A stretch of 64,000 bases of DNA from Patescibacteria group bacterium (GTDB lineage: Bacteria; Patescibacteriota; Minisyncoccia; Phycocordibacterales; Phycocordibacteraceae), in assembly GCA_038064495.1 (NCBI GenBank), contig JBBTSZ010000002.1:216934-280933 (forward strand), in the 5' to 3' direction. Shown here piece by piece: positions 13,800 to 59,634 of the stretch. The notes under the pieces are model-generated. The model was given only the letters and a program-made list of their open reading frames with translations. It was not told the origin of the DNA and did no database searches. A program made the translations under genes and the position numbers. The number at the start of each line of letters is the position of its first letter. Position 1 is the first letter of the stretch.

Positions 13800-13858
13800 A
13801 ATCTTTTATAGGGCGAAATTAAAAATTTCGCGTGTAGCGGGACTTTTGTGGAGGGTAT

Positions 13859-13894
13859 CCAGCCCCAGATTGAGAAAATCCAATCTGGGGCTGG
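13859..13894. other. perfect 14-bp hairpin CCAGCCCCAGATTG/CAATCTGGGGCTGG in the rpsA upstream region
   Basis: Inverted repeat seen in the sequence. Confidence 0.5.
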
Positions 13895-13970
13895 AGGTTA
13901 GCCCACACACGACTCGTCAGACGCTGTAAATGAACCTACGGAATATAGCAAAGAGTGAGGAAAATGAAAA

Positions 13971-13994
13971 GGCCCGGACGTAAACGTCCGGGCC
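13971..13994. other. perfect 10-bp palindromic hairpin GGCCCGGACG-taaa-CGTCCGGGCC
   Basis: Inverted repeat seen in the sequence. Confidence 0.5.
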
Positions 13995-14020
13995 TCCTGT
14001 GCAACCACACCCATTTTCAA

Positions 14021-14029
14021 GGGGGGGGG
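14021..14029. repeat. G9 homopolymer tract
   Basis: gggggggggc, in a noncoding context. Confidence 0.9.
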
Positions 14030-14550
14030 CGAAAAACGAGCAGGGAAGCACAAGCTCTTTGCTAGGCATTGGGCGCCGGCGATTTCCTAGATCGCGGCCG
14101 ACGCCGCCAGGCCGGCTGGTGAAGATGATGTGATCGCAGTATCCGCGCGATCGAAGCCACAAAAAAAGATTCCGTCGAAAACGACGATGTTCACGGTGAA
14201 CGCATCCTTCTTCTCCTCGTTCGAGTCCTGTCTTCCCGCACAGTTGCGGGCACCTGGACCAAGGCAAGTTACCACAACCTTTTTCCTTGTCAAGTAAGGT
14301 GTGGATAACTTTTATCGCTGAAACGAGATGGTGGGGGACTCAGCCGTAGGAATCTTATTCTAGGCTCTATTCCTTACATTGCACTACCTCATATACTCGT
14401 ACACGAGCTTGCAGGCATATGGTACTGCGCCACGTACACCGCGTTTCCTGAATAAAAAAGCGTTCCAACTCCCCTGCTAAAATCCCACTTCCGACTCCCC
14501 TATTTCTTTGGTTTTTGGCGCTCCGAAGACTCGTTTTTTGGCTTACTTTA

Positions 14551-14559
14551 TGCTATAAT
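14551..14559 (+). promoter_or_regulatory. extended -10 promoter element TGcTATAAT, 11 nt upstream of the 14570 start codon (leaderless or near-leaderless transcript implied)
   Basis: Exact TGnTATAAT consensus. Confidence 0.5.
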
Positions 14560-14569
14560 CCCCTTATAT

Positions 14570-15211
14570 ATGGTTATTACGCACCACGGCGGTCAGTGTT
14601 TCAAAGTCACCTTTGGTGACTTGACCCTTGTGTTTGACCCAATTTCTAAGAAAGGCTCCGTCCCAGCTGTTCGCTTTGGAGCCGACATCGCTCTTGTATC
14701 TCGCAATCATCCGAACATGAATGGTATTGAGGAAGTCTCATTTGGTGGCAAGGAGACGTTTGCTATCACGGGTCCGGGTGAATATGAGCACTCCGGCGTC
14801 ACTATCCAGGGCTTTTTGACCAAGAGTGAATACGACCTCCCGAAAAATCAGGACGAGGCGGTGAACACGGTGTACGCCGTAAATCTTGAAGGTATGACGC
14901 TCGTACACCTCGGAGCGCTCAACGAACCGATGCTTTCGCACGAAGCACGAGAAGCCATTGATGAAATAGACGTGCTCTTCGTACCCATCGGAGGCGATGG
15001 CGTCCTGGATAGTGCACAAGCGGCAAAGCTTGCCGTGACGCTTGAACCACGCATCATTATCCCTATGCACTGGAGTGGTATGGGCGCACCAAAGTCTCTT
15101 GAAGCGTATTTGAAGGAGGAAGGTGAAGGAGCCGAAAAAATGGATAAACTGACGCTCAAGAAAAAAGACACAGCAGACAAAGACGGTGCTATTATTGTAA
15201 TCACGCCTTAG
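14570..15211 (+). CDS. metal-dependent hydrolase, MBL-fold (UPF0173/YtkL-like)
   Basis: MVITHHGGQCFKV start typical of UPF0173; later motifs are MBL-like. Confidence 0.65.
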   Translation: MVITHHGGQCFKVTFGDLTLVFDPISKKGSVPAVRFGADIALVSRNHPNMNGIEEVSFGGKETFAITGPGEYEHSGVTIQGFLTKSEYDLPKNQDEAVNTVYAVNLEGMTLVHLGALNEPMLSHEAREAIDEIDVLFVPIGGDGVLDSAQAAKLAVTLEPRIIIPMHWSGMGAPKSLEAYLKEEGEGAEKMDKLTLKKKDTADKDGAIIVITP

Positions 15212-15213
15212 AT

Positions 15214-15573
15214 ATGGAAACTCGTCGCGTCCACGAAGTCGTCCATGGTCTCCGCCAGAAACCGGAGCATGTGCGGGAGCGCATTGCCCTTCTGACCGCT
15301 GCCGGTAGCACCCTTGTCGTTGCACTCGGTTGGTTCGGTGTCATGAGTACGACGGGAGCTTTTTCTCTTGCACCAAATCTTCCCGCAAGCGACATTGCGC
15401 AAACGAAATCAAGTGTGACTGACGAGACGAACTTCAAAGCGCTTCTTGGAGCTGCGGGAGCTGCGATGGGAGCAACTTCTACCGCGCCAAACATTAAAGT
15501 CGTTGATACCAAGTCCTACTCCACGCTTGATGCGCCAACCCCCCCGCAAGATCAGACCGTCATTCATTTTTAA
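15214..15573 (+). CDS. small membrane protein, hypothetical
   Basis: One TM helix (LLTAAGSTLVVALGWFGV); 3-nt spacing after the preceding gene. Confidence 0.4.
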   Translation: METRRVHEVVHGLRQKPEHVRERIALLTAAGSTLVVALGWFGVMSTTGAFSLAPNLPASDIAQTKSSVTDETNFKALLGAAGAAMGATSTAPNIKVVDTKSYSTLDAPTPPQDQTVIHF

Positions 15574-15709
15574 GAACATGCCTAAAAATTCCATCTGCTT
15601 CGTTATGGGTCCCCATCACCTCATCCGCCGTATAGCACATACGTCTACTTCGGTGACGTACCTATGCCTCGCATCTGGAGCTTTTTTGGCATGTTCTAGC
15701 TAGTTATTT

Positions 15710-18178
15710 ATGGCAAAGAAAGTTGAAGTAGAGGGAGTAGCACCCGAGCCACGCGTGAGCGTGATTGATCAGTCCATTGTGGCTGAGATGCGTTCTAGCT
15801 ATTTGGATTACGCAATGTCCGTTATTACGAGTCGTGCACTCCCAGACGTACGTGATGGATTGAAGCCGGTACATCGCCGCATTCTGTTTTCCATGAAGCA
15901 GAACGGACTCACCGCATCTGCAAAGTTTCGTAAATCAGCAACCGTGGTGGGAGACGTGCTTGGTTCGTACCATCCGCATGGAGACGTTGCGGTGTACGAT
16001 GCGATGGTGAAGCTTGCGCAGGATTTCTCTACGCGCTATCCACTCGTACTTGGACAGGGAAACTTTGGTTCCATTGATGGCGACCCACCTGCTGCGTATC
16101 GCTACACCGAGGCAAAGATGTCACGCATTGCTGAGGAACTCCTCAAAGACCTTGATAAGGAAACGGTTGAGTGGGCGCCGAACTATGACGGTAGTAAGAA
16201 TGAGCCGACCGTGCTTCCTGCCGCCATTCCAAATCTCCTTTTAAACGGCACCTTGGGTATTGCGGTTGGTATGGCGACGAACATTCCTCCGCACAACCTG
16301 CGTGAGGTGGTTGAGGCAACCATGCATTTGATAGAGAACCCAGACGCGTCGGTGGACGACCTCCTCAAGTTTGTGAAAGGTCCTGATTTTCCACTCGGTG
16401 CGATTGCGTTCAATCAGTCAGACATTAAGCACGCCTACACGACCGGTAAGGGTGGCGTGGTCGTACGTGGGGAAGCCGACATTGTGGAAGATAAGAAGGG
16501 AACGCAAATCATCATCACTTCCCTACCATTTCGTGTAAACAAAGCTGACCTCATTACCCGTATCGCAGACCTCGTGCGCGATAAGAAGCTTGAAGGCATC
16601 AAAGACCTTCGTGATGAGTCTGCGGCGGATATACGCGTGGTCGTGGAGATGAAGGGCTCAGCGCATCCACAAACGGTCTTGAACTCGCTTTACAAGCACA
16701 CCGAGCTAGAAAGCACCTTCCACTACAACATGCTCGCGCTCGTGGATGGCGTTCCGCAGACCCTCTCTCTCAAGGGCATGCTTGAGAATTTCATCGCGCA
16801 TCGTCAGGTGGTGGTGAAGCGTCGTACCGAGTACGACCTTCGGAAGGCAGAAGAGCGTGAGCACATTCTCCTTGGTCTCTCTAAGGCGCTGGACCATATT
16901 GATGAGGTCATTAAAATTATCCGCGCATCAAAGGACGTTCCGACGGCGTCTGCAGCGCTCATAAAAAAATTCGCTTTTACGCCTATACAGACGGCAGCCA
17001 TCCTTGCCATGCGTCTCCAGACACTTGCCGGTCTTGAACGCAAGAAGATTGAGGACGAGCTTGCTGAGATTCAAGAACTCATCAAGAGGCTCAAGAAAAT
17101 CCTTTCATCCCTCAAAAATATTCTTGACGTCGTGAAGGCGGAACTCTCGGAAGTTTCAGAGAAATACGGTGACGAGCGACGTACAAAGATAGTAAAAGGT
17201 GGCGTTAAAAACATTTCCGTAGAAGATTTGATTGCGGACGATGAGTCCGTGCTTGTACTTACTGCAGGTGGCTACGTGAAGCGTACGAATCCGGACGAAT
17301 ACAAAGCGCAGAAACGTGGCGGCGTGGGTGTGATTGATATGTCCACGAAGGAAGAAGATGTGGTAACACACTTCCTCGTAGCGTCTGCACACTCGGACCT
17401 CCTCTTCTTTACGGACAAAGGCAAGGCATATCAAACAAAAATGTATGACATTCCGGAGGGACGTCGCGCCACAAAAGGAAAGTCCATTATGAATTTCCTT
17501 CCGCTTGCGGCTGACGAAAAAGTAACGAGTGTCCTTCCGGTACCAAAGGGTGCAGCGCGTGACGCGATGAGTGTCTTTTTTGTAACGAGTGAAGGCGTCG
17601 TGAAGAAAGTGGAAGCAAAGAATTTTGCTGATGTACGTCGTTCCGGCATTATTGCGATTGCGCTCAAGGGTTCCGACAAGCTCGTTTCCGCGTCGCTTTC
17701 AGGCGATGGGGACTCAATGTCCATCGTGACGTCAAAGGGCCAGTCCATTCGTTTTGATGAGTCAGATGTGCGAGCAATGGGACGAACGGCCGCAGGTGTG
17801 CGCGGTATGACTGTCAAAAAGGACGATTATGTCGTTTCTGCTGAGGTGGTCTCTGGTATGGAGAAAGGAGCAACACTTTTGGTGATTATGGATAAGGGAT
17901 ACGGAAAGAAAACAGTACTGTCTGAATACAAGATTCAAGGACGCGGTGGTTCCGGTATCAAGACCGCCGAAGTAACTTCGAAGACGGGAAGTATCATTGG
18001 CGCGAAGGTCATTTCCGGTGACGTAGAAAAGGCAGAAGAGATTGTCGTCATCTCAAAGAAAGGACAGGTCATCCGCTGTTCTGCAGGAGAGATTCCTTCC
18101 CTATCACGCGCGACCCAGGGCGTGCGGATTATGAAGATGCGGGAGGGCGATTCGATCGCTAGTATGGTAGCGCTGTAA
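15710..18178 (+). CDS. gyrA: DNA gyrase subunit A
   Basis: Active-site region [24 protein letters not shown], 822 aa with a C-terminal beta-pinwheel region. Confidence 0.9.
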
Positions 18179-18222
18179 TCGCACCCTTCGTTTGCTTGTG
18201 CTAAAGTGCGCTCGGAAAGGAG

Positions 18223-18720
18223 ATGCACATGAGGAGAAAACGAGCTCCGGTGCGGGCGTGTGGCGGATGCACTGCCTGCTGCAAAACGCACGAGGTACGA
18301 AAAGTGCTGAAAAAGCCGCCAGGTGAGTGGTGCACGCACTGTGAACAAGGAGTCGGATGTCATATATATGAGACCCGGCCACAGCCATGCAAAGTCTATG
18401 AGTGTGCGTGGGCACAAGGACATGGAACCGAAGCGGAGCGTCCGGACAAATGCGGTGTCGTCGTTGATGTACAGAGAACACCGAATCAACATCTTGCTTT
18501 CGTTTGTATCTGGGAGGTTGAGGAGGGTGAAGTTGAGAAGGAGTACGCACAACAGCAACGGAAGTGGTATTTGAATCACGGCATGTGCGTACTGTTTGTA
18601 CGGTTACAAGGAAGCCGTACCGTGACTTTTCCGTTGGAAGTCCCATTCACGCAAGCACTGAAGGATGATTTTCTTGCGCTTGGGGTTACTCGTCTTCAAC
18701 GCTTGCAGCGAGTTGGGTGA
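18223..18720 (+). CDS. YkgJ-family Cys-rich protein (CxxCxxCC putative Fe-S/zinc-chelating domain)
   Basis: CGGCTACCK followed by further Cys pairs (CTHC, GCH, CKVYEC). Confidence 0.55.
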   Translation: MHMRRKRAPVRACGGCTACCKTHEVRKVLKKPPGEWCTHCEQGVGCHIYETRPQPCKVYECAWAQGHGTEAERPDKCGVVVDVQRTPNQHLAFVCIWEVEEGEVEKEYAQQQRKWYLNHGMCVLFVRLQGSRTVTFPLEVPFTQALKDDFLALGVTRLQRLQRVG

Positions 18721-18725
18721 ATAAC

Positions 18726-18757
18726 GGGCCGCCACTACCGGCGGCCCGTGTTATTTT
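18726..18757 (+). terminator. hairpin GGGCCGCC-acta-CGGCGGCCC plus TGTTATTTTT
   Basis: Perfect stem plus T tract just after the 18720 stop. Confidence 0.7.
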
Positions 18758-18765: not shown

Positions 18766-18882
18766 GCATCCCGTTAGAAATCGCGGACGCTCATCTACAT
18801 ACAACATGATCGACATTTATAGAACTAATCGAGTGGGGTACGGAGGCACGAAGCTGTCCGCGTCCTATTTCTAACGGGATGC
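18766..18882. other. 117-nt element closed by a 16-bp perfect long-range inverted repeat (GCATCCCGTTAGAAAT ... ATTTCTAACGGGATGC) with an inner 7-bp helix; overlaps the annotated start of the downstream methyltransferase
   Basis: Seen in the sequence; a candidate structured RNA or cis-regulatory element. Confidence 0.4.
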
Positions 18883-19421
18883 ACCTTGCAGATCTCTTTA
18901 GTAATCCGACAAAAAACGTACTACAGATGGGGCTCACTGAAGGTATGAAAGTCGGAGACTTAGGCGCAGGTTCTGGACACTATGCGCTTGCCGCTGCACA
19001 TCTTGTGGGGCCATCCGGTCGTGTCTACGCGCTTGATGTCCAAGAAGATATCTTGAAGCACATCCGGGACGCGGCAAAAGAAAAAAAGCTACAGAATATT
19101 GAGACTATCTGGGGCGATTTCCAGTATCCAGGCGGTACGCGTCTTACCGATCATATTCTTGATGCGGTTATATTATCTAATACCCTGTTTCAAGTAGAAG
19201 AAAAACAAACGGCAGTTGCTGAAATGAGACGGATATTGAAACCGGGTGGCAAGGTGCTCGTATGTGACTGGGCCGGAAGTTACAGTGGTATGGGTCCGCA
19301 TCCCGAACACATTGTGTCAGAACATGATGCCGAAGAATTGTTCATCACGGCTGGTTTTCATAAGACGAAAACGTGGCGTGGCGGCCCACATCATTACGCA
19401 ATACTATTTATGTCTCCCTAA
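18879..19421 (+). CDS. class I SAM-dependent methyltransferase (start uncertain; alternative Met at 18927)
   Basis: Motif I VGDLGAGSGHYAL, post-I acidic ALDVQ, LKPGGKVLVCDW. Confidence 0.7.
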   Translation: MHLADLFSNPTKNVLQMGLTEGMKVGDLGAGSGHYALAAAHLVGPSGRVYALDVQEDILKHIRDAAKEKKLQNIETIWGDFQYPGGTRLTDHILDAVILSNTLFQVEEKQTAVAEMRRILKPGGKVLVCDWAGSYSGMGPHPEHIVSEHDAEELFITAGFHKTKTWRGGPHHYAILFMSP

Positions 19422-19448: not shown

Positions 19449-20747
19449 ATGAAGCCCTTTCAAATAATCACCATTTCTGTCTTCGCTCTGCTCGCGCTTG
19501 TGGGCCTCTTTCTCTTTGCCACCTTTAAAGGATTCGGCGGAGCAAAACCACTCGGAAATGTGATGATATGGGGAACACTCTCCGCTGATGCACTGCAGCC
19601 AGCACTCAACGAACTGAAACGAAATCACAAAGAGTTTGATAAGGTCGCTTATCTTGAACGAAACGAGAGCACGTTTGATGCTGACCTTGCCGAAGCAATT
19701 GCTTCAGGTACGGGTCCCGATATGATTATCATTACGCAGGAACAACTAACGGCAGAAATACCAAAGCTGTCCATTATTCCCTACGCTACGATTCCAGAGC
19801 GCACCTATCGCGATACCTACGTACCTATATATGAACTCTTCCTGGATCGTAATGGTACGTTTGGTGTTCCATTTGTCGTTGACCCGCTCGTCCTCTATTA
19901 CAACCGCACCCTACTCGCAAGTGGTGGTCTTGCACAACCACCAACAACCTGGGAAGCAGTCGTCGGACTCGCTCCCACGTTAACGAGAAAGAGTGATACC
20001 GGAGTCGTGAGCAGAAGCACCGTTGCTTTTGGCACGTATGAGAACATTCCAAACGCCAGAGCCATTATTTCCTTGCTTCTACTGCAATCGGGAAGTCAAA
20101 TAACCACCTACGGCACGCTCGGCATCACCGGCGCACTTGCTTCGGGTGGCTCTTCCGCTGCTTACAGCCTTTCTCCAGCTGAGTCAGCCGTCAGTTTCTA
20201 CACCCAGTTCGCTGATCCCGCTAAGGTGGTCTACTCGTGGAACCGCTCTCTCCCAAGCGCTCGCCAAGCATTCACTTCAGGGGACTCCGTGTTCTATGTG
20301 GGATTTGCCTCTGAAGCAGCCTTACTCAAAGCGACAAACCCAAATCTAGACTTTGATATGGCTCCGGTGCCTCAGCCTCAGACCGCACAAACAAAGACCG
20401 ACTATGGACTCGCCTATGCGTTCGCCATTCCAAAAGCCGCCAGTAATCCTGACGGTGCGTACAAGACCGCCCAGGCCTTAACGGCGAAGGATGAACTCTA
20501 CATTATTGCCGGATCGCTTGGCATGGCCCCTGCAAAGCGTGCCTTTCTGACGCCACAAACAAACGATATTTTTGCTTCGGTGTATTACCCAATGGCGATT
20601 ATAGCGAAAGGATGGCTGTCCCCAACGCCAGGCGTAACCGACGCAATTTTCACTGCTATGATTACGGATGTGATAAGCGGTCGCTCAAACGTGCATGATG
20701 CCATTAAGCGGGCAGATGATGCGCTCTCCGCCGCGTTTTCTCACTAA
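19449..20747 (+). CDS. extracellular solute-binding protein family-1-like lipoprotein/secreted protein; no cognate ABC permease or ATPase nearby
   Basis: N-terminal TM/signal, then SBP-like fold hints (MIWGTLSAD..., VPFVVDPLVLYYN). Confidence 0.5.
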   Translation: MKPFQIITISVFALLALVGLFLFATFKGFGGAKPLGNVMIWGTLSADALQPALNELKRNHKEFDKVAYLERNESTFDADLAEAIASGTGPDMIIITQEQLTAEIPKLSIIPYATIPERTYRDTYVPIYELFLDRNGTFGVPFVVDPLVLYYNRTLLASGGLAQPPTTWEAVVGLAPTLTRKSDTGVVSRSTVAFGTYENIPNARAIISLLLLQSGSQITTYGTLGITGALASGGSSAAYSLSPAESAVSFYTQFADPAKVVYSWNRSLPSARQAFTSGDSVFYVGFASEAALLKATNPNLDFDMAPVPQPQTAQTKTDYGLAYAFAIPKAASNPDGAYKTAQALTAKDELYIIAGSLGMAPAKRAFLTPQTNDIFASVYYPMAIIAKGWLSPTPGVTDAIFTAMITDVISGRSNVHDAIKRADDALSAAFSH

Positions 20748-20750: not shown

Positions 20751-21266
20751 ATGCAAATTAAATGGCAAGAAGCCACCTCACTCATTCCACTTTTGCTCTT
20801 AGGTTTATGTAGCTTTACGTTTTCGGCTCAGGCTGCGGCAACAATTCCAGGCGTAATCTTTGAGAATGATCCTCCAGCGAAGACAACGGTTCTTCTGCCG
20901 TCTGCATCAACTCCCGCACCAACAAAACCAGCTACGCCAGGTGCAACTGGAGCCACTTCTCCGGGCGCGGCAACTGGCCAGACATCAACTCAGTCTGGTT
21001 CGCCAACAGGTCTCCAAAATCCGCTTCAGGCAGGAACACTTGAAGAGCTTCTTACTGCGATTCTTAAGGGCGTTGTAGCGATTGGTGCCATATTCCTTAC
21101 CTTTATGATTATCTATGTCGGCTTCCTCTTTGTAGCTGCGCGCGGGAACGAAGAAAAAATACGTGATGCGCGTCAAGCACTTGTCTGGACCGTGATTGGA
21201 GGACTCCTTTTGCTTGGTGCTGAAGCCATAAGTCTGGTCATTCAGTCTACGGCGCAAACGTTATGA
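20751..21266 (+). CDS. pilin-like paralogue P1: signal peptide, Pro/Thr/Ala-rich linker, two TM helices (VirB2/TrbC-like topology)
   Basis: Signal peptide plus the conserved two-TM module shared with the next four ORFs (..F..GF..V...GNEEK.R....L.W..IG). Confidence 0.55.
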   Translation: MQIKWQEATSLIPLLLLGLCSFTFSAQAAATIPGVIFENDPPAKTTVLLPSASTPAPTKPATPGATGATSPGAATGQTSTQSGSPTGLQNPLQAGTLEELLTAILKGVVAIGAIFLTFMIIYVGFLFVAARGNEEKIRDARQALVWTVIGGLLLLGAEAISLVIQSTAQTL

Positions 21267-21589
21267 GCCCCTTCACAAGACTGTTTTCGCTGCTTCCCGC
21301 ATTTCTGTTCGTACTCATTCCACTGCACAGCGCTTTTGCGGCAACTCCCACGTTTGAAGAGTGGGTAAATAACACTGCAGTTGGATTCGTTGATTCCTAT
21401 GTGATACCGCTCCTCTACGCAGTTGCGTTCCTTGTTTTTATGTTCGGTGCCTTTCGCTACTTCTTTACCGGCGGGGAGGAAAACAGGGAAAAGGGACGTG
21501 CTTTTCTCCTTTGGTCCATTATCGGCATGGTCGCAATATTTTCCGTGTGGGGCGTCGTGAATCTACTCCTTACTGCTCTTCCGCAGTAA
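21263..21589 (+). CDS. pilin-like paralogue P2
   Basis: AFLVFMFGAFRYFFTGGEENREKGRAFLLWSIIGMVAIFSVWGVVNLL module; signal peptide; 4-nt overlap with P1. Confidence 0.6.
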   Translation: MSPFTRLFSLLPAFLFVLIPLHSAFAATPTFEEWVNNTAVGFVDSYVIPLLYAVAFLVFMFGAFRYFFTGGEENREKGRAFLLWSIIGMVAIFSVWGVVNLLLTALPQ

Positions 21590-21638
21590 CGTGTATAACT
21601 GCTTGATTCACGCCAAGCGCTTGCTAGGCTTCATCTAT

Positions 21639-22319
21639 ATGACACATTTCCGTACCCTACTCACCGGCATTTCAGCTGTGGCGCTTCTGTTTATCGTTAA
21701 CGTTCCGCATGCCCTTGCACAAACAGCAACCAATAGCTCAGCACCCATAGACCAGCTGGGTCAATTCTTACAACAGTTCATTCGCTTTTTTGACCTCTAT
21801 CTGGTCCCGCTCATATTTGCACTCGCCTTCATCGTGTTCTTGTGGGGCGTCTATCGGTACCTCATTCTTGGTGCTGACAACGAGGAGAAACGTCAGGAGG
21901 GTCAAAAGTTCATCATGTATGGCCTTATCGGTTTCTTCATCATGATTTCAATTTGGGGGATTGTTAATTTACTTGTCGGTTCGCTTGGTTTCGGAAATGA
22001 TCAGCGTCCCAATCTTCCGACCTTCGGTTCACCCTCTCAATCAGGAAGTAACGGTTCAAAGATTCTTCCAAGCAGTCCGTCAGTAAACACGACTGGATCT
22101 GCCAATACGAGCGGAGGTTCTGTTACCCCGGGAAACACGTCTACAGACTGTCGTTCTGACGGTGTGTGTCCTGCTAACACCGTTTGTTCGTTTAGCGGTA
22201 CGCAAGCAGGGCAATGTATAACCACGAACCCTCAAGATTGTCGTCTTCCGAACACAGCCTGTCCTTCAGGATACGTGTGTAACGCAAACAATGGTCTCTG
22301 TAAATTGAATTCAATATAG
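21639..22319 (+). CDS. pilin-like paralogue P3 with a C-terminal Ser/Thr/Gly linker and an 8-Cys extracellular domain
   Basis: Module AFIVFLWGVYRYLILGADNEEKRQEGQKFIMYGLIGFFIMISIWGIVNLL, then CRSDGVCPANTVCSFSGTQAGQCITTNPQDCRLPNTACPSGYVCNANNGLC. Confidence 0.6.
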   Translation: MTHFRTLLTGISAVALLFIVNVPHALAQTATNSSAPIDQLGQFLQQFIRFFDLYLVPLIFALAFIVFLWGVYRYLILGADNEEKRQEGQKFIMYGLIGFFIMISIWGIVNLLVGSLGFGNDQRPNLPTFGSPSQSGSNGSKILPSSPSVNTTGSANTSGGSVTPGNTSTDCRSDGVCPANTVCSFSGTQAGQCITTNPQDCRLPNTACPSGYVCNANNGLCKLNSI

Positions 22320-22415
22320 AAACTGTTGTCCACAAAGCGAAAACGAGCCAATTGACGGAGGGGTGAGAATCGCTATGCTTAGAGGGAACCTACGTGGTTA
22401 TACTAATTACCTTAT

Positions 22416-22775
22416 ATGAAGAAACTCGGCTACACTCTCGCAGCTTTTGCCACGCCTTTTCTTGCGTTTGCACAGGTGCAAACCATTAATGACGCAGGTA
22501 GAATCGTGATTGATATCATTAACAATGTTGCGGTACCTATCGTATTCGCACTCGCCTTCATCGTCTTTATCTGGGGTATCTTTCGATACTTCGTTCAAGG
22601 AGGACACGACGAGGAAAAACGTGAAGACGGTAAGCAGCTCATGCTCTGGGGCCTCATTGGTTTCTTTGTCATGGTCTCGGTGTGGGGCTTAATCCACATC
22701 CTCATTGGAACCTTCAACTTGAACCCAGCTATTCCAAATTATCCAACCGCACCGTATACCACGAAAGGACGCTAG
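22416..22775 (+). CDS. pilin-like paralogue P4
   Basis: AFIVFIWGIFRYFVQGGHDEEKREDGKQLMLWGLIGFFVMVSVWGLIHIL; signal peptide ending AFA-QVQ. Confidence 0.6.
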   Translation: MKKLGYTLAAFATPFLAFAQVQTINDAGRIVIDIINNVAVPIVFALAFIVFIWGIFRYFVQGGHDEEKREDGKQLMLWGLIGFFVMVSVWGLIHILIGTFNLNPAIPNYPTAPYTTKGR

Positions 22776-22797
22776 TTTCCTATAGCACTCTCCTTGG

Positions 22798-22826
22798 AAA
22801 CCCGCGCAATCCTTGCGCGGGTTTCT
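22798..22826 (+). terminator. hairpin AAACCCGCGCAA-tcc-TTGCGCGGGTTT after P4
   Basis: Perfect 12-bp stem. Confidence 0.5.
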
Positions 22827-22841
22827 GCTATGATAGAGAGC

Positions 22842-23099
22842 ATGAATACAGAATTCAACGCATTTCTCGGTAAAGTTGAACAGGCTATTTTGAACCCACT
22901 CATCACGCTTTTGATACTGGCCGCGTTCGTGCTCTTTGTATATGGGGTCGTTGAATTCATTGCTGGAGCGGGAAATGATGAAAAAAGAAAGATAGGTCAG
23001 CAACATATGATATGGGGCTTCATTGGACTTGCCATTATGTTTGGTGCTAAAGGCATTGTGGCGCTTCTTGCAAGTACGTTTGGCGTTCCGGTCCCCTAG
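22842..23099 (+). CDS. pilin-like paralogue P5 (most divergent; no obvious cleavable signal)
   Basis: AAFVLFVYGVVEFIAGAGNDEKRKIGQQHMIWGFIGLAIMFG module. Confidence 0.5.
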   Translation: MNTEFNAFLGKVEQAILNPLITLLILAAFVLFVYGVVEFIAGAGNDEKRKIGQQHMIWGFIGLAIMFGAKGIVALLASTFGVPVP

Positions 23100-23156
23100 T
23101 ACATACAAAAAGGGTCCAATACGCGCGAGGCATACTGGACCCTTGAAAGGTACAAA

Positions 23157-23792
23157 TTAGAGCGAAGGACAAGGTGTACTACATTCGCTCGCTTCTTTTC
23201 TGAAACACACACGGGTCGTAAAGGCCTGCTCGTCCGCCGAACTGAAACGCTCGGCACTCATGTCAGGAACTTTACCCTCTGGTTTTGGAAACCAGTGAGA
23301 TTCATCCATGTCATGAAAACGACGATCCCGATAGCTCACGCTAATTTGCGATGGTGATGCGTTATCAACGCACATTGCATATCCGGGAACACCCTCAACG
23401 ACATCTGAGTACGTTCCGCGTGCAGGCACAAGGAGCAAACGCGTTGGTGGTGGAACCACCTCCGCAACTCTCTGGCCCGACGTTGACGGTACAGAGTGTC
23501 TGCTCGCCGTTAGCTCGCTAATCAACTGCTGTCCCTGGGGTTGCGTAAGGATAAACCAAATCGCAAATCCAAGGAGGGCAAGCACCACGAATTTCGAGGC
23601 ATTCATCCCGGAGGATGAATGCCCTCCACTTTCTCGACGCTGCACAACCGTTGGTGCAGGTGGAGTACTTGCCGAGACAGTTACTGCCTTCGGCTTCCTC
23701 CACCAGCCAAGTGCCCACCATCCGAATAAACCGATGACGAGCAGGAAGGCAAGCAAGGCAAGGTTACCGTTTGTTGCGGAAAACGCCGTCAT
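23157..23792 (-). CDS. membrane protein, hypothetical; second gene of the SPFH operon
   Basis: Two TM helices; 4-nt overlap with the upstream SPFH gene. Confidence 0.45.
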   Translation of the reverse strand: MTAFSATNGNLALLAFLLVIGLFGWWALGWWRKPKAVTVSASTPPAPTVVQRRESGGHSSSGMNASKFVVLALLGFAIWFILTQPQGQQLISELTASRHSVPSTSGQRVAEVVPPPTRLLLVPARGTYSDVVEGVPGYAMCVDNASPSQISVSYRDRRFHDMDESHWFPKPEGKVPDMSAERFSSADEQAFTTRVCFRKEASECSTPCPSL

Positions 23793-25198
23793 CTTTTTTC
23801 TCCTACTGGCTCAGGCTTCTCTGTTGCTCCCTCCGTTTTCAGGCCGAGACCAAAGAGTTTCCCAATGCTTGCGGCCTGCATGAGGCCACCGTCACCGAGA
23901 ATGGTCGCGTTTGCGCCCGGAATCGTTGCACGCGCAGTTTCAGCTGCGAGCACCTCGGAACCGTCCACGCTGATTGCTTCCATCATTTCCTTCATGCCTT
24001 CAGCTCGGCCCCGAAGGGGACCAGCTGCTTCTGCTCGGAGCGCCTTGCCCTTTGCTTCACCGACAACGACAATTGCATCAGCATCTGCCTTCGCAGCAGT
24101 CACCTTTGCAGTCGCCAGAAACGGAGCCATGGCTGCGTCACGTTGTGCCTTCGCGTATTCGTGCGACGGATTGATCTTCGTGACGTCAGCGTCGATGACC
24201 TGGATTCCCCAATTGAGGGTACGAGCACGGATGTGGTCATCCAAATGCTCGTTCAACTGGGCAAGCCCCGAAATGATGCCGTTGTAGTCCTTAGAAGCAA
24301 AGTCTTCGTTCAGGACTGCGAGTGACATCTTTTCGAGTTGACTTCGCGCTTCAGCAATCGTGCCAACGTTCGCAATGAACGTAGCAAGGTCAACAATTCG
24401 CCAAAAGACGAACCATATGACCCCAACAGACATTTGTGCCTGGCTCGAGCCATTATCGACGGTAAAACTCGTGTTGATAAACACTGGCTTCACCATGCCT
24501 TTCGGCGCTGGTATTTTTTCGTCGTTCCAATCAATGATGTCAGGTGGACCTGGCATATAGAACTCTTGCAAATCGCGGGGACCGCGCTTCAGGGTCAAAA
24601 TACCAGGAGGAACGAAGTGTGGACCCGCTCCAGTGTTCTTGAGTGCAATATCGTAGAAGTAGAACGAGGCAAGCTCGTTCGGCTTCACGACCCGAATGGA
24701 AAACGCCACATACAACAACGGGAAAAAGATAAACCAGAACCCGAGGTTGAAGTTGAGCGACCCGATAGTTCCTAGAATTGTGAACCAGGTCAGATACACG
24801 CCGAAGCTGATGCCGATAAGGGCGAACAGCATCGCTGTATTGATTTTGCGATATAGCGGCCTATTGAGTCGCACGAGGTCCATTTTTGGATTGGACTGGT
24901 CGCTTGCTTCAGGTGCAGAGTTCGTTGCCGAACCCTGATTCTGGAAGGCATTCTTCAAACGCCTCCCAGTCCATTTGGAAGCAGATGCGATTCCGCGACC
25001 AACCTTTGTTCCGGCGGCTCGGTAAAAGATGATACTCTTGCCGCCCCATTTTTTGATTTGTCTTCCAGTCCATTTTGCAGTGGACATTGCGCCACGCGCC
25101 AGTTGAGAACGAAATTTCCAACTTATTGCGCTGAACACAAGTCCAGCCAGAATCCAGACCATCCGTTCCATGGCCACATGAATGAATTGATCGAACAT
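23789..25198 (-). CDS. SPFH/band-7 (stomatin/flotillin-like) domain membrane protein
   Basis: N-terminal TMs; the core NWGIQVIDADVTKINPSHEYAKAQRDAAMAP...AKADADAIVVVGEAKGKALRAEA is typical of HflK/C-flotillin. Confidence 0.6.
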   Translation of the reverse strand: MFDQFIHVAMERMVWILAGLVFSAISWKFRSQLARGAMSTAKWTGRQIKKWGGKSIIFYRAAGTKVGRGIASASKWTGRRLKNAFQNQGSATNSAPEASDQSNPKMDLVRLNRPLYRKINTAMLFALIGISFGVYLTWFTILGTIGSLNFNLGFWFIFFPLLYVAFSIRVVKPNELASFYFYDIALKNTGAGPHFVPPGILTLKRGPRDLQEFYMPGPPDIIDWNDEKIPAPKGMVKPVFINTSFTVDNGSSQAQMSVGVIWFVFWRIVDLATFIANVGTIAEARSQLEKMSLAVLNEDFASKDYNGIISGLAQLNEHLDDHIRARTLNWGIQVIDADVTKINPSHEYAKAQRDAAMAPFLATAKVTAAKADADAIVVVGEAKGKALRAEAAGPLRGRAEGMKEMMEAISVDGSEVLAAETARATIPGANATILGDGGLMQAASIGKLFGLGLKTEGATEKPEPVGEKR

Positions 25199-36589: not shown

Positions 36590-37588
36590 ATGCGGAGATA
36601 TCTCCTTCCAGCGCTCCTTGCGCTCTGTATAGTGTTTCTGCCGAGTATTGCGTCAGCAGAGTCTAATGCAGGAATCTTCGCGCCAGTCATTTCTGACGTC
36701 TGCACGTGTCCAGGCACTGCTCCTGGTTTTGGATGCATTCTAGACACCATACAGAACCTTCTTAACCTCGGCGTCTCACTTTCAGCGATGCTTGCGGTGC
36801 TCATCATTGCCTACGCAGGTACCCTTCTCATCTTTAACCCAACCAAACCGGAGTACCGGACACAAGCGAAAGGCATGCTCGCGAATGTTGCCATAGGCAT
36901 GGTCATCGTACTCGCCTCCTGGCTCATCGTTGATTTTGTGATGAAGATTGTCTACAACCCCGGTGCGGTATTTTCGGGAAATGTTATTGGACCTTGGAAC
37001 GATATTCTTGGTGGTGGCGAGGCCTGTATTGTTGCTCAACAACTCGACACCATCTTTGATGGAAATCTAGTGACGACGCCGACGACCGATGTGGCTGCAA
37101 GTGGAGGTGTACTCACCAACTCTGGAAAAGGAGCTTGTAATGCAATAACGGTTGCACAAAGTGCCGCCGCAGGTGGAGCACGCATGTCCACACAGGAGGC
37201 GAACATTCTTGCCTGCGTGGCAGGTCCGGAAAGCCAATGTGGTGCAGTGTTACAAAACTATAATTGGAACGGCGCAAAAAGCTATCCACCTTCAACCGCG
37301 TACGGGCCCTTTCAGATTACACTCAAAGGAAACAGCGGCTGTTTTGAGAATGCAGCTTGCTATCAAGCCGCCGGTGTTAGTGGATCGCTAAACTGTGATG
37401 CAGCGTTTGATTCAAAAGGCTATGCAATTCCCGGTGCCAGGCTTGAACAGTGCAAGCGTGCCGCCGCGAACCTCACGTGTAGTTCGGTTGCTGCAGATTG
37501 TGTATATCGTAAGCAAGGTGCAAGTGCGTGGACAGCTGATAAAAGTAGTTCAAAGCAACAGGCGTGCATCTCTGGTAATGGAGGCTAA
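36590..37588 (+). CDS. pilin-like N-terminal module (signal peptide, CxCPG...GC, two TM helices) fused to a Cys-rich C-terminal domain with a possible lysozyme/lytic-transglycosylase-like motif
   Basis: The N-domain is paralogous to that of the 38156..39100 ORF. The C-domain has ...QEANILACVAGPESQCGAV...STAYGPFQI (E-S ... A.G..Q resembles the SLT/lysozyme-like signature). Confidence 0.5.
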   Translation: MRRYLLPALLALCIVFLPSIASAESNAGIFAPVISDVCTCPGTAPGFGCILDTIQNLLNLGVSLSAMLAVLIIAYAGTLLIFNPTKPEYRTQAKGMLANVAIGMVIVLASWLIVDFVMKIVYNPGAVFSGNVIGPWNDILGGGEACIVAQQLDTIFDGNLVTTPTTDVAASGGVLTNSGKGACNAITVAQSAAAGGARMSTQEANILACVAGPESQCGAVLQNYNWNGAKSYPPSTAYGPFQITLKGNSGCFENAACYQAAGVSGSLNCDAAFDSKGYAIPGARLEQCKRAAANLTCSSVAADCVYRKQGASAWTADKSSSKQQACISGNGG

Positions 37589-37597
37589 ACTACAACT

Positions 37598-38152
37598 ATG
37601 AAAAAGGCGCTCATCATCATTTCAGTCATACTCGTGCTTTTGCTTGTTGCCGGACTTGGTTACTATTTCTATACCCATACAAAGACCCCACAGGCGCCTG
37701 ATAGTACAAATACATTTCCGATCGGTGATATGAATCAAGGAGGTAGTTCAACCATGGTAATACCTGCTGAGGATGGAGGTAGCATCTCCACATTGGATTT
37801 CATACATAACAACGTCACGTTTGAAGATCCTGCGAATAAGGGCGACTACTATCTTGCCGGAAGTAATGACATTTGTAATCCAGACGGTACCTGTCCAAAA
37901 GCAGGCACGTCTACCCATTTCAATATTCTGTATTTCTCAGACTCTGGTTCTTTCGTCATAAGTCTTAATGAAGAACCACTTGGTCAGATTCGCAGAGAAG
38001 CAGAAGAGTATCTCATACAAACGCTTGGTATAACGCAAGAGCAAATGTGTAAACTAAACTACACCATCGGTACGACGTCATACATCAACGACACATTTGG
38101 AGGTGAGAATTTAGGATTCAGTTTCTGTCCCGGAGCAGTGAAGCTCCCTTAG
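37598..38152 (+). CDS. membrane-anchored secreted hypothetical protein
   Basis: N-terminal TM; 9-nt spacing after the previous gene; sits between two paralogous fusion genes. Confidence 0.4.
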   Translation: MKKALIIISVILVLLLVAGLGYYFYTHTKTPQAPDSTNTFPIGDMNQGGSSTMVIPAEDGGSISTLDFIHNNVTFEDPANKGDYYLAGSNDICNPDGTCPKAGTSTHFNILYFSDSGSFVISLNEEPLGQIRREAEEYLIQTLGITQEQMCKLNYTIGTTSYINDTFGGENLGFSFCPGAVKLP

Positions 38153-38155
38153 ACT

Positions 38156-39100
38156 ATGTGTAGATTCCTCATCCCACTTCTCGTCACGGTCTTCCTCATA
38201 GGAATACCACTCATGGCACAGGCTGCCGATACCAGTTTCTTTGGCCCTATCGTTCCGACACAATGTAATTGTCCGGGTGAAGCCCCGGGTCTTGGCTGCA
38301 TTCTTGAAAGCCTCCGGCTTTTGATGAACCTCATCATTTCCATCGCCTGTGTGTTCCTTACGCTCATCATTGCGTACGGTGGCCTCCTTTTCATGATGGG
38401 TGCGACGAACCCCTCGCAACGCGAGACCGGTAGGAACGTGCTCATCAACGGTTTCATCGGTATTGTCATCGTCTTGTCGGCCTGGCTCCTGGTTGATTTC
38501 ATTATGAAGCGTCTGTATAACTCAAACTCTTTCGGACCGTGGAACTCTATTTTGCTCGGTCAAGGAGAGCTCTGTCTGCATAAACAACAAACCGGAGAAA
38601 TATTTACTGGAAATATTGTAGTAACTCCAACCACAAACCCTGGTTCTGCGGGTGGGGCAGGTGGAAGTGGTGGGAGTGGTGCAAATTGTCCTGCCGCTGA
38701 CCCTGGAAGCATGGTTAACTTTCCAGCTTCAGCAACCTCAGGTGCGGCCGAGAAGGCAACTCCTACAACCGTGCAGAATTTCCTTGCCATGCGAGCTGCT
38801 GCACTTAAAGAAGGTATTGATTTAAAAGTAACGGATGGATATCGATCTGAGTCCGAACAAATAGCTCTGTGGGATAGATATGGGCACGACACCAGCCAGG
38901 CAGCTCGACCTTGTACGCTCGGAGGTGGTGGGTCAAATCACAACTCTGGAACGGCGGTTGACCTGACCGTCGGTTGTGCCAAGACGGATAGTTCGTGCAA
39001 CAGTCCACAGTACCGCTGGTTGAAGGCAAATGGTTCCAAGTGGAATTTTAGAAACGCACTTCCAACTGATACGGTGCACTGGTCGCCAAGTGGTACCTAA
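38156..39100 (+). CDS. pilin-like N-terminal module fused to an M15/VanY-type D,D-peptidase (LAS metallopeptidase) domain
   Basis: The N-domain shares CNCPGEAPGLGCILESL...IIAYGG...GIVIVLSAWLLVDFIMK..YN...FGPWN with the 36590 ORF. The C-domain has SNHNSGTAVDL (SxHxxGxAxD) and TVHWSPSG, preceded by a Gly-rich linker. Confidence 0.6.
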   Translation: MCRFLIPLLVTVFLIGIPLMAQAADTSFFGPIVPTQCNCPGEAPGLGCILESLRLLMNLIISIACVFLTLIIAYGGLLFMMGATNPSQRETGRNVLINGFIGIVIVLSAWLLVDFIMKRLYNSNSFGPWNSILLGQGELCLHKQQTGEIFTGNIVVTPTTNPGSAGGAGGSGGSGANCPAADPGSMVNFPASATSGAAEKATPTTVQNFLAMRAAALKEGIDLKVTDGYRSESEQIALWDRYGHDTSQAARPCTLGGGGSNHNSGTAVDLTVGCAKTDSSCNSPQYRWLKANGSKWNFRNALPTDTVHWSPSGT

Positions 39101-53825: not shown

Positions 53826-54272
53826 TTAAGCAGCAACGATTCTAGAACCGACGCTTTTGAGATGTGCACGAGTGGCATCGGAAATAGTTCCGACAGTCCC
53901 GCCCTCGATTGCAAGTGGGAACTGCTTGATGAGTTCGACGAGTCGAGTCGGGTCAGTACACCGATTGATTTTGTGCCAGCCTTTCTTTTTCGGGACGGAT
54001 GCACCACCAGTGATATGCGGACCCTTGTAGCCGATAGAGACATGGGTCCCACGGTCAGAAACAGATGTCAGCTCCGCGCGGTCATAGCCGTAGACCTTTC
54101 CGTTTGGATGCTCAGAGTCGACCCAGATGGTTGCGCCTGGCTCAAACTTTGCGAGTTCTTCTGCAGGAATGCATTCAAAGAGAGCCCCGATATCCTTGTT
54201 CCTGAAATCCGTCCAGTGGTTGCTGTATATGACTTCGCTCGGAAGTTCTAGGTGAGGTGTTTGGTCTGTCAT
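53826..54272 (-). CDS. hypothetical protein
   Basis: ORF; a hairpin CGCCCGGAG...CTCCGGGCG lies downstream. Confidence 0.4.
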   Translation of the reverse strand: MTDQTPHLELPSEVIYSNHWTDFRNKDIGALFECIPAEELAKFEPGATIWVDSEHPNGKVYGYDRAELTSVSDRGTHVSIGYKGPHITGGASVPKKKGWHKINRCTDPTRLVELIKQFPLAIEGGTVGTISDATRAHLKSVGSRIVAA

Positions 54273-54498
54273 CGCTACACTCCATGTTTGAGATTTCAAT
54301 TCCTGTTGCGGGTGCTACAGGGCGTCTGCGTTGTCTATAACACAGTTATTTGAGTAAGTAAAAAGGTTCCAATATAGCCCCAGACTGTCAGCTAACTTTA
54401 GTATGCAAAATAAAAAACCTGTCCGTAAAGACAGGTATTTTTGGCCAATGCCCGATAAGAACTTCCTTGTACAAACTACTTACAATTTACTTGTGAAC

Positions 54499-59586: not shown

Positions 59587-59634
59587 CCAAAACAACGTAA
59601 GATATGAGTTGTGGCTCCCAAGGCCAAAAAACCT

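Follow-up and report, generated by a model that had tools for sequence, protein, structure and literature searches.

Five consecutive genes on one strand of a contig from an ultra-small bacterium of Hainich groundwater, of the Patescibacteria (Paceibacteria-type), encode small, divergent membrane proteins of a catalogued pilin-like family. The window, by which we mean the whole 64-kb stretch of DNA that was analysed, comes from this contig, which is 397 kb long. The five ORFs, P1 to P5, occupy positions 20751-23099 on the plus strand:

20751..21266, plus strand: P1, 171 aa; signal peptide, a Pro/Thr/Ala/Gly-rich linker of about 65 aa and a C-terminal 2-TM core
21263..21589, plus strand: P2, 108 aa; signal peptide and 2-TM core
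21639..22319, plus strand: P3, 226 aa; signal peptide, 2-TM core, low-complexity linker and a C-terminal 8-Cys tail
22416..22775, plus strand: P4, 119 aa; pilin-like protein
22842..23099, plus strand: P5, 85 aa; 2-TM core only, without a signal peptide

The start of P2 overlaps the end of P1 by 4 nt. The five same-strand ORFs reported in the initial annotation stand; as the public gene calls for the source contig give 171, 108, 226, 119 and 85 aa, its size range of 86-227 aa is one residue off. No clear Shine-Dalgarno sequence is present upstream of the array genes, and so the starts chosen for P3 (ATG start, 226 aa; upstream GTG, 242 aa) and P5 (ATG start, 85 aa; TTG at 22794, 101 aa) rest on the public gene calls and on the lengths of orthologues.

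We compared the five proteins with known pilin families. All of them exceed the curated gathering score of PF18895 (T4SS_pilin; 26.6 bits, a whole-protein score), with 35.7, 39.9, 39.4, 44.9 and 31.6 bits for P1 to P5, respectively; the match in P1 spans residues 95-160, and precomputed PF18895 matches are on record for the public gene calls. Against Pfam PF04956 (TrbC/VirB2; gathering score 27.9 bits), the profile by which the initial annotation had proposed to check its VirB2/TrbC reading, P1, P2, P4 and P5 match below threshold (21.9, 19.1, 14.9 and 17.0 bits) and P3 does not match. Scores to NF045849, the Mbov_0395-family pilin-like conjugal transfer protein, range from 24.6 to 36.1 bits (E=3.9e-9 to 1.5e-5, with P4 at 36.1 bits and E=3.9e-9), below the curated cutoff of 40 bits, and these proteins look like significant homologues of that family, not equivalogs. 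Two-TM hydrophobic proteins easily yield spurious matches. Using hhalign, a 15-sequence family alignment aligns weakly to 7 VirB2/TrbC sequences (P=4e-4, probability 34%) over 50 columns with TM1-loop-TM2 in register, which only weakly supports homology to canonical VirB2. The P4 family profile, searched against PDB sequences, matched nothing but a de novo designed channel (E=0.09), and fold searches with the helical hairpin were non-discriminating. NCBI names the proteins identical to P4, and to the further family member P6 described below, as 'pilin'.

The proteins share the PF18895 architecture, namely two hydrophobic helices linked by a short charged loop, in most cases with a signal peptide in front. 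Each of P1-P5 contains two strong hydrophobic 19-residue segments (Kyte-Doolittle 2.0-2.75), and the consensus derived from 416 domains of the family in 80 related genomes, '..AFivFiwGvf.Fi.gggdEEkR..Gk..mlWGiIGfvvmfsvWGiVnll', matches the shared core motif that the initial annotation had read from the five translations. P1-P4 begin with a hydrophobic segment ending at an AxA-type site (AQA, AFA, ALA and AFA, respectively), whereas P5 has none; by this heuristic, which combines hydropathy with the AxA site and is not a dedicated predictor, four of the five proteins carry predicted signal peptides, as first proposed, and these would be of the Sec type. The Pro/Thr/Ala/Gly-rich linker of P1 is likewise present, and P3 has exactly 8 Cys, all of them in the C-terminal tail, which gives only weak Granulin/Lustrin-Cys hints. 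In the AF2 model of P4 (pLDDT 77), a signal-peptide helix is followed by a hairpin at residues 24-61 and 66-99, whose helices reach pLDDT 82-91. With PF18895 passed by 5/5 proteins, PF04956 matched below threshold by 4/5 and the literature in agreement, the VirB2/TrbC-like architecture claimed at the outset is supported. Each protein is predicted to form a hairpin of two hydrophobic helices around a conserved charged loop (GG-D/N-E-E-K-R..G-K). By the positive-inside rule, this loop would be cytoplasmic and both termini would face outward, so the P1 linker and the Cys-rich tail of P3 would be exposed at the surface.

Searching all six-frame ORFs of the window with the family HMM recovers exactly seven members, P1-P5 and the ORFs at 36590-37588 and 38156-39100. 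The last two are absent from the list in the initial annotation. They form, with the ORF between them, a second small array under the published definition given below (PMC12102498):

36590..37588, plus strand: P6, 332 aa; pilin-like N-domain fused to a Cys-rich extracellular domain of about 200 aa
37598..38152, plus strand: ORF184, a single-TM protein with one N-terminal hydrophobic helix, between P6 and P7
38156..39100, plus strand: P7, 314 aa; pilin-like N-domain fused to a VanY/M15-type cell-wall peptidase

P6 scores 42.9 bits against PF18895 and has 57 full-length homologues. Its C-domain is modelled by AF2 with pLDDT above 90, and neither Pfam nor PDB nor fold searches give it a significant match. 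An alignment of the window protein with 30 homologues shows no variation at E214-S215 and G239..Q242 across the 31 sequences. This E-S...G-x-x-Q motif prompted us to consider a VirB1/SLT-type lytic transglycosylase, a candidate we rejected, as it finds no support in Pfam, PDB-sequence or Foldseek searches and hhalign against four VirB1/SLT proteins aligns only an 'IAxxES' segment (P=0.35). The motif is an unproven hint of a transglycosylase-like function. ORF184 matches no Pfam or PHROG family and is syntenic, with an equivalent 195-aa ORF between the P6 and P7 homologues of two relatives (L094 and L095). P7 scores 39.2 bits against PF18895, and its C-terminal part matches VanY (E=1.8e-14), PDB 2vo9 (the Ply500 L-Ala-D-Glu peptidase; E=2e-6) and PHROG endolysin families (E=7e-8). 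In other proteins, the same N-domain is joined to Big_5, IPT/TIG and PKD domains.

We then considered the genes around the array, which include a Band7 gene and the following features:

18724..18749, plus strand: terminator-like GC-rich hairpin with a T-run, 10-bp stem with 9 GC pairs, from a consensus scan only
18879..19421, plus strand: class I SAM methyltransferase, 180 aa (Pfam Methyltransf_31/11/25)
19449..20747, plus strand: orphan membrane-anchored solute-binding protein (SBP), 432 aa, of sugar/maltose-binding type
23110..23144, unstranded: 15-bp-stem hairpin (inverted repeat I4), between P5 and the convergent gene at 23157-23792

The first hairpin sits between the ORF at 18223-18720 and the methyltransferase gene, and is the probable upstream limit of the transcription unit. 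The methyltransferase gene, possibly the first of the unit, is separated from the next gene by 27 nt and has a homologue at the same position in 70/80 related loci. The SBP matches SBP_bac_1 (E=8.6e-18) and SBP_bac_8 (E=6.9e-17), has a single N-terminal hydrophobic segment, and its distant PDB sequence matches are sugar/maltose-binding proteins; no ABC permease or ATPase is found among the window ORFs scanned. Only 4 nt separate the SBP gene from P1, and the SBP adjoins the array in 75/80 related loci. Within the array, the 96-nt gap before P4 holds a promoter-like site (22352-22379) that is not above chance expectation, the promoter scan as a whole being at chance level (6 found vs 5.9 expected). 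The hairpin at 23110..23144 has its T-run on the minus-strand side and is the probable end of the unit; plus-strand transcription would presumably terminate there.

T4SS genes are missing from these surroundings. We analysed about 55 ORFs of the window by Pfam and screened the ORFs of unknown family for Walker A motifs and TM helices, and found no VirB4, VirB6, VirD4, VirB3 or VirB8 in the 64-kb window or in the 10 kb beyond either end. The statement of the initial annotation that the window lacks VirB4, VirB6 and VirD4 is thus confirmed, and the look for T4SS ATPases elsewhere on the contig that it had proposed yields none in the 10 kb past each end, the part of the 397-kb contig that this search covered. 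Nor are T4SS genes present within 10 kb of the array in the 80 related genomes, where all large ORFs were screened. The neighbours of the array are the methyltransferase, SBP and Band7 genes, in place of the virB1-virB2-virB3-virB4... order of a canonical T4SS operon. With no T4SS genes nearby, it is the family name, along with what is known from other lineages, that connects the array of this lineage to a T4SS. In a survey of Patescibacteria, VirB4 is present in 2417/3035 genomes and a pilin gene lies near virB4 in 1135/1948 assemblies (PMC12102498).

To see how the array varies, we compared it across 80 related genomes or loci, all of them Paceibacteria/Parcubacteria MAGs. The locus is syntenic (S1-MBL-GyrA-MT-SBP-[pilin x5-7]-..-IF2-ClpB), and the gene order P1-P2-P3-P4-P5 is kept in 46/80 loci. 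For the members of the 54 five-member arrays, 263/270 best matches in other genomes (97%) lie at the same array position, and orthologues are 69-87% identical vs 29-44% for paralogues of the same genome. P1 is the first gene in nearly all relatives, P2 is the position-2 orthologue in 52/54 five-member arrays, and P5 is the last in 54/54, with orthologues that have a median length of 85 aa and likewise lack a signal peptide. P4 has the highest median best inter-genome identity of the five positions (87%). Between species, only the N-terminal linker of P1 and the Cys-rich tail of P3 vary in length: the P1 extension ranges from 7 to 260 aa, and the P3 tail, which follows a conserved 'RPxLPxF' motif, has 1-285 aa and 0-20 Cys, with even Cys counts in the tails listed. 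In some relatives the middle copies vary, giving 5 to 7 members, and natural ORFs fuse 2-8 tandem pilin hairpins; one such fusion of 820 aa, with 17 hydrophobic segments and no internal stop (table 11), occurs in two independent assemblies. The comparison of copy number and sequence across relatives, which the initial annotation had proposed, thus reveals 5-7 copies, with position-specific orthologues in the five-member arrays. Judged from this conservation, the array is an ancient core-genome operon of position-specific orthologues, kept in order together with an anchored sugar-type SBP. Positional orthology, SBP linkage and polyprotein fusions are not mentioned in the available portions of the array literature (PMC7427843, PMC10633639, PMC12102498).

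The locus belongs among the pilin-gene arrays that earlier work has reported from Patescibacteria, and the finding is largely known. Since tandem VirB2-like arrays have been reported in this group, the kind of system is not new: PMC12102498 counts 441 arrays in 383 assemblies, each with 2-11 divergent VirB2-like pilin genes, and gives an average within-array identity of 25% and a maximum of 54%, an array being at least two pilin genes in tandem or one non-pilin gene apart in a Patescibacteria genome. P1-P5 are five adjacent genes on a Patescibacteria contig, and their core identity of 12-42% shows the divergence expected of such arrays. They share with the published arrays the PF18895 family, the phylum, the one-strand tandem arrangement, signal peptides in most members and low identity, but differ in lying neither in nor near a T4SS cluster, in a gyrA-to-ClpB core-genome block after an orphan SBP. 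The pilin series SEML1_0006-0019 of Southlakia epibionticum is essential and lies inside the T4SS cluster (PMC10633639). The 'Sec-secreted array' of TM7x was originally read by analogy with pertussis toxin (PMC7427843), and later papers regard such arrays as encoding pilins (PMC10633639, PMC12102498). A conduit resembling a pilus has been put forward in a review (PMC12857230), and another paper calls what the T4SS does in Patescibacteria 'completely unknown' (PMC11665869).

Other pilin systems show further likenesses and differences. Like VirB2/TrbC/TraA of the Agrobacterium T-pilus and the F pilus, the proteins are small, with a signal peptide, two helices and a loop with basic residues, but their loop is about 7 residues longer and bears a conserved acidic-basic motif (D/N-E-E-K-R). 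They also differ in belonging to a monoderm organism and in that several family members carry large extra domains. All 6/6 plasmid virB2 genes that we fetched lie directly upstream of virB3, and 5/6 are directly preceded by a VirB1/transglycosylase gene, whereas the array has no adjacent virB1, virB3 or virB4. The VirB2 paralogues of Bartonella, Anaplasma and Rickettsia are also divergent side-by-side genes of host-dependent bacteria with reduced genomes; their copies have been proposed to allow variation of antigens or host range, whereas the members of the array are positionally orthologous and non-equivalent. This strict positional orthology, together with the non-equivalence of P5 and the decorated P1 and P3, argues for distinct structural roles. 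The Mbov_0395 family (NF045849) of a Mycoplasma ICE consists of small 2-TM proteins from a monoderm MPF-FATA-type conjugation system, and differs in being encoded by a single-copy gene on a mobile element and not by a chromosomal five-gene array. This resemblance may mean that the pilin-like protein arrived together with the monoderm-type T4SS.

With moderate confidence, we favour the reading that P1-P5 are VirB2-like T4SS_pilin proteins that act together as distinct subunits of a T4SS pilus or conduit. They would act jointly and in fixed proportions in one envelope structure. Most Patescibacteria carry a monoderm-type T4SS, without which Southlakia cannot grow epibiotically, and the pilus or conduit of this system is the likeliest candidate for the structure. 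P4, the most conserved member, would be the likeliest bulk (major) subunit, P1 and P3 would add species-specific surface decorations, P6 and P7 may display cell-wall hydrolases, and the ATPase and channel genes would lie elsewhere in the genome. To our knowledge, no pilus of a PF18895-type family has been observed, and we infer that P1-P5 form one. Covalent 8-hairpin polyproteins would be awkward for polymerisation from a pool of membrane monomers, which speaks against a filament, and the tight linkage to a solute-binding protein is a non-T4SS feature, which speaks against the T4SS reading.

A possible, though unlikely, alternative is that the PF18895 hairpin serves to anchor proteins in the membrane and to oligomerise them rather than to build a filament, and that P1-P5, perhaps with the SBP, form a fixed hetero-oligomeric ring or platform in the cytoplasmic membrane that displays surface domains or forms an uptake channel and could function without a T4SS. 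No T4SS gene is linked to the array here or in the 80 relatives, the orphan SBP is tightly co-conserved with it, and strict positional orthology fits a fixed stoichiometry; moreover, the N-domain also carries the VanY peptidase of P7, the Cys-rich domain of P6 and Big_5, IPT/TIG and PKD domains, and there are ORFs with 16 TM helices from 8 hairpins. Such a platform is, however, compatible with a pilus, as canonical pilins are also membrane-resident before assembly. The family also remotely resembles VirB2/TrbC and the pilin-like protein of a Mycoplasma ICE, and in other Patescibacteria it is commonly found beside virB4 and is essential with the T4SS (PMC12102498, PMC10633639).

It is doubtful, and to our minds quite unlikely, that the five paralogues assemble one-to-one into a single hetero-oligomeric unit, possibly with the SBP as a contact-dependent uptake device. 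Such a unit could consist of five-fold layers of a VirB2-type tube with five different subunits, or of a fixed membrane ring or conduit, and the device might be encoded apart from, or even be independent of, a T4SS ATPase. This would fit with best matches that keep their array position in 97% of cases, with members that are not equivalent to one another, with the linkage to the SBP and with the fusions of 2-8 hairpins. Every characterised conjugative pilus that we know of is a homopolymer, from which a hetero-oligomeric unit would differ.

We consider it improbable that the cell varies its antigens or host range by means of interchangeable paralogues, using one or a few of them at a time. Low intra-array identity (12-42%), P1 and P3 decorations that differ between species, middle copies that bring some relatives from 5 to 7 members, and the Bartonella/Anaplasma analogy suggested in PMC12102498 all point that way. 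Against it, each position holds an old orthologue shared by at least 54 species, with 97% positional best matches in a fixed order; the members are not equivalent, because P5 is uniformly without a signal peptide; and the fused polyproteins imply joint use. The array contains no long DNA repeats, the only repeat being 156 nt at 72% identity between P3 and P4, and without long identical DNA tracts we reject a gene-conversion or cassette mechanism. The initial annotation had offered major and minor pilus subunits or antigenically variable filaments; old positional orthologues, the lack of gene-conversion-type repeats and natural polyprotein fusions favour distinct subunits, as in our preferred reading, and disfavour the variable filaments.

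Very improbable is a set of Sec-exported soluble effector or toxin subunits released via the T4SS, by the pertussis-toxin analogy made for TM7x. Small proteins, four signal peptides, 4-6 genes in a row and the original reading of such arrays in PMC7427843 suggest it, but two strongly hydrophobic segments form a hairpin after the signal peptide and are therefore incompatible with a soluble secreted subunit, no toxin family matches in Pfam or NCBIfam, and the arrays were later reinterpreted as pilins in PMC10633639 and PMC12102498.

Hardly tenable is the reading as holin-like lysis proteins or other unrelated small membrane proteins with a misleading pilin-like Pfam name, for although the proteins are small and 2-TM and P7 carries an endolysin-like peptidase, no PHROG holin family matches any of the seven proteins at E<=0.1, the only 'lysis' match to the core region is a marginal spanin (E=0.0075), housekeeping genes surround the array, which in 80 species belongs to the core genome as an operon and not to a prophage, and a search of 2.9 million viral contigs found no relative. 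Class II holins also differ in topology from the N-out/C-out arrangement predicted here once the signal peptide is cleaved. The initial annotation had said that a holin-family match would overturn its pilin-like reading; PHROG gives none, and the reading stands.

Much of bacterial diversity belongs to the Patescibacteria, which apparently subsist on host cells, and their T4SS and pilin array are essential in the one species examined. The locus adds no new kind of system to this picture. The comparison does show a stable, position-specific five-subunit core operon in a large Paceibacteria clade, tied to an SBP, with subunits that are sometimes fused and with no T4SS ATPase gene within 10 kb in the loci compared. 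This directs experiments to a heteromeric structure of fixed stoichiometry rather than to antigenic variation, and singles out P4 as the probable bulk subunit, with P1 and P3 the probable host-facing parts.

The five tandem pilin-like genes (P1-P5) occupy positions 20751-23099 of the window and are preceded by genes for a class I SAM methyltransferase (MT) and an anchored solute-binding protein (SBP).

Genes of the array and the two genes before it (window coordinates)
18879-19421, MT, class I SAM methyltransferase
19449-20747, + strand, SBP, membrane-anchored, sugar/maltose-type, separated by a 4-nt gap from P1, the next gene downstream
20751-21266, + strand, P1, 171 aa
21263-21589, + strand, P2, 108 aa, overlapping P1 by 4 nt
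21639-22319, + strand, P3, 226 aa
22416-22775, + strand, P4, 119 aa
22842-23099, + strand, P5, 85 aa

The start codons of P3 and P5 were chosen from the source contig's public gene calls and from orthologue lengths. The initial annotation had described five same-strand ORFs with a common motif, and the ORF map confirms this arrangement, with the motif ..AF.vF.wG...F...GG(D/N)EEKR..GK..mlWG.IG....s.WG.V. recovered both in an alignment of seven sequences and in the consensus of 416 homologous domains. Using hydropathy analysis, we found two strong hydrophobic helices in each protein, as well as an N-terminal hydrophobic segment with an AxA-type end in P1-P4 that is absent from P5, matching the four signal peptides proposed earlier. 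The linker of P1, rich in Pro/Thr/Ala/Gly, and the C-terminal tail of P3, with 8 Cys, had also been noted and are both present. Pairwise identity of the core (the two hydrophobic helices and the charged loop) is 12-42% within the array. P3 and P4 are the closest pair, with 42% amino-acid identity in the core and 72% nucleotide identity across 156 nt of core DNA (21803-21958 versus 22532-22687). No long DNA repeats able to drive cassette exchange were found.

All five proteins score above the gathering score of the Pfam family PF18895 'T4SS_pilin' (31.6-44.9 bits against 26.6), and these profile scores establish their membership in it. Four of these proteins also match TrbC/VirB2 (PF04956), always below threshold, and NCBIfam NF045849 (Mycoplasma ICE 'pilin-like conjugal transfer protein') gives matches that are significant (E=4e-9 to 1.5e-5) yet below its cutoff. 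A profile-profile comparison with seven plasmid VirB2/TrbC proteins gives a weak match (P=4e-4, probability 34%) with TM1-loop-TM2 in register, and canonical VirB2 is a plausible, if weakly matched, homologue. The earlier pilin-type reading is thus correct, with PF18895 above threshold and the weak in-register alignment in its favor, and a search of the PHROG holin families, a possibility raised with that reading, returned no match. In the AF2 model of P4 (pLDDT 77), a signal-peptide helix is followed by a helical hairpin, a fold so simple that fold searches were uninformative. NCBI names both P4 and P6, a further family member in the window, 'MAG: pilin [Patescibacteria group bacterium]'.

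Arrays of this kind have been described before. McLean et al. (2020) reported a 'novel array of 4-6 small secreted proteins' beside VirB4/VirB6 in TM7x and across CPR (PMC7427843), Wang et al. (2023) recognised the TM7x-type array proteins as predicted pilins that are essential in S. epibionticum (PMC10633639), and Quinonero-Coronel et al. (2025) catalogued 441 arrays of 2-11 genes via PF18895 and PF04956 (PMC12102498). Thus, the P1-P5 locus is one more example of the catalogued pilin arrays and no new kind of system. As to function, a 2025 review speculates on a pilus-like conduit (PMC12857230), and a 2024 perspective calls the role of the T4SS 'completely unknown' (PMC11665869).

Proteins identical to those of the window are encoded on a groundwater contig of 397,175 bp from Hainich (ENA ERZ1292619), and the window is ordinary chromosomal DNA, with ftsA/ftsZ, gyrA, IF2, ClpB, parB, relA, topA, dprA, serS and seven tRNAs. 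Terminator-like hairpins at 18724-18749 and 23110-23144 flank MT, SBP and P1-P5, which probably form one transcription unit bounded by the two. Among the window ORFs scanned, we found no ABC permease or ATPase partner for SBP.

Several features of the surrounding DNA were observed alongside. Between gyrA and MT (18104-18720) the ORFs are in conflict: the public gene call at 18104-18646, on the minus strand and 180 aa long, overlaps gyrA's end, lacks homologues in the 80 relatives and may be spurious, while the plus-strand alternative at 18223-18720 is a 165-aa ORF ending at a strong terminator-like hairpin. Downstream of the array and convergent to it, a minus-strand gene pair (23157-25198) lies at the one edge that varies in a block whose synteny is otherwise kept. 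The first product, 211 aa long with two TM segments, falls in no family and has a homologue at only 1 of the 80 related loci; the second, an SPFH/Band7 protein of 469 aa, is present in 12 of them. At 54000-60000, G+C falls to 0.445-0.475 from about 0.50; this stretch, which has several family-less ORFs as well as short ones from poorly known families (DUF2200, OmdA, DUF817, DUF1003), may be an accessory island. About 4-7 kb past the window end (13805-16756 of locus L006), a gene for a FecR-like protein precedes one for a CHASE2-guanylate/adenylate cyclase sensor, a signalling pair unexpected for so reduced a genome.

Searching P4 against one genome per GTDB species yielded 207 relatives of P4, and we compared the best 80 loci, all from Paceibacteria/Parcubacteria-type MAGs. 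The array is present in 80/80, with 5-7 members wherever no contig end cuts the locus, within the syntenic block S1-MBL-hyp-GyrA-MT-SBP-[array]-..-Alr-RbfA-IF2-..-ClpB; SBP adjoins it in 75/80. When each gene is assigned to its best-matching window paralogue, the order P1-P2-P3-P4-P5 is found in 46/80 loci, and the others mostly carry one or two additional middle copies. Since these copies are P3- or P4-like, the P3/P4 pair seems to be the place where copy number changes. In a positional test independent of the window sequences, covering the 54 genomes whose arrays have exactly five members, 263 of 270 genes find their best inter-genome match at the corresponding position, with a median identity of 69-87% by position against 29-44% between paralogues of the same genome. 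Array copy number and sequence across relatives, a comparison the initial annotation had proposed, therefore mark P1-P5 as old, position-specific orthologues and not as recently amplified genes. Variation between species is concentrated in the N-terminal extension of P1 (7 to 260 aa) and the C-terminal tail of P3 (1-285 aa, following the conserved RPxLPxF motif, with 0-20 Cys and even counts among the tails listed). P2, P4 and P5 are constant in size, and a signal peptide is missing from all P5 orthologues.

No VirB4/VirB6/VirD4-like genes occur in the window, as stated at the outset, or in the 10 kb past either end on the 397,175-bp contig, and in the 80 relatives the array has none within 10 kb. 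According to the same catalogue (PMC12102498), VirB4 is found in 2,417 of 3,035 Patescibacteria assemblies, usually near dnaA/dnaN in Paceibacteria, and only 1,135 of 1,948 assemblies have VirB2-like genes close to virB4, so an array without linkage to virB4 is not unusual.

The window contains exactly two further family members, P6 and P7, separated by a single-TM ORF (ORF184). Synteny of this second locus extends to a distant relative (L094/L095).

Further family members (P6 and P7 in window coordinates; L100 and L101 are loci with their own)
36590-39100, + strand, second family locus, P6-ORF184-P7
36590-37588, P6, pilin-like N-domain and well-folded Cys-rich C-domain of unknown type (AF2 pLDDT above 90), invariant residues E-S...G-x-x-Q
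38156-39100, P7, pilin-like N-domain and VanY/M15 cell-wall peptidase similar to phage endolysin
L100 9925-12387 (JGI Ga0265297_10004127) and L101 230-2692, also P0193 and P0178, multi-hairpin ORFs with 3-8 tandem hairpins each

When 1.84 billion representative proteins were searched with the family profile, 42,847 clusters matched at E<=1e-3, indicating a very large family. Many top-ranking matches carry 2-8 tandem pilin hairpins within a single ORF, and by hand count 55 of the best 150 representatives have at least two domains. One fusion ORF, 820 aa long and uninterrupted by stops under table 11, has 17 hydrophobic segments and occurs in two independent assemblies; 3' of it lie more pilin-domain proteins and PKD-repeat proteins, and no VirB4 was found nearby. 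Other members carry Big_5, IPT/TIG or PKD domains. In the 650-1400 aa proteins P0321-P0327, the PF18895 domain is joined to Big_5, IPT/TIG or other surface-type domains, and the hairpin may therefore be a widespread anchor for adhesin-like proteins.

P1-P5 are predicted to be PF18895 hairpin proteins, and Sec signal peptides are predicted for four of them. Under the positive-inside rule, the loop with its conserved charges would be cytoplasmic and both termini outward, so that the decorations of P1 and P3 would be external. By sequence comparison, the five subunits are shown to be non-equivalent and co-inherited. We infer that they work jointly, at constant ratios, as parts of a single envelope structure, most likely the pilus or conduit belonging to the monoderm-type T4SS of this lineage. 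P4 would then make up its bulk, P1 and P3 would face the host, and P6 and P7 would serve as accessories that remodel the cell wall. It is rather unlikely that the five proteins form a non-filamentous membrane ring, possibly coupled to SBP. The initial annotation had offered either a set of distinct subunits or antigenically variable filaments; the first option is favored, and the positional orthology and the natural polyproteins weigh against antigenic variation. The same two observations argue against soluble toxin subunits. The interest of the P1-P5 locus, with its probable pilus or conduit subunits, lies in its details: what would be a fixed five-subunit operon, its linkage to SBP, and the hairpin fusions.
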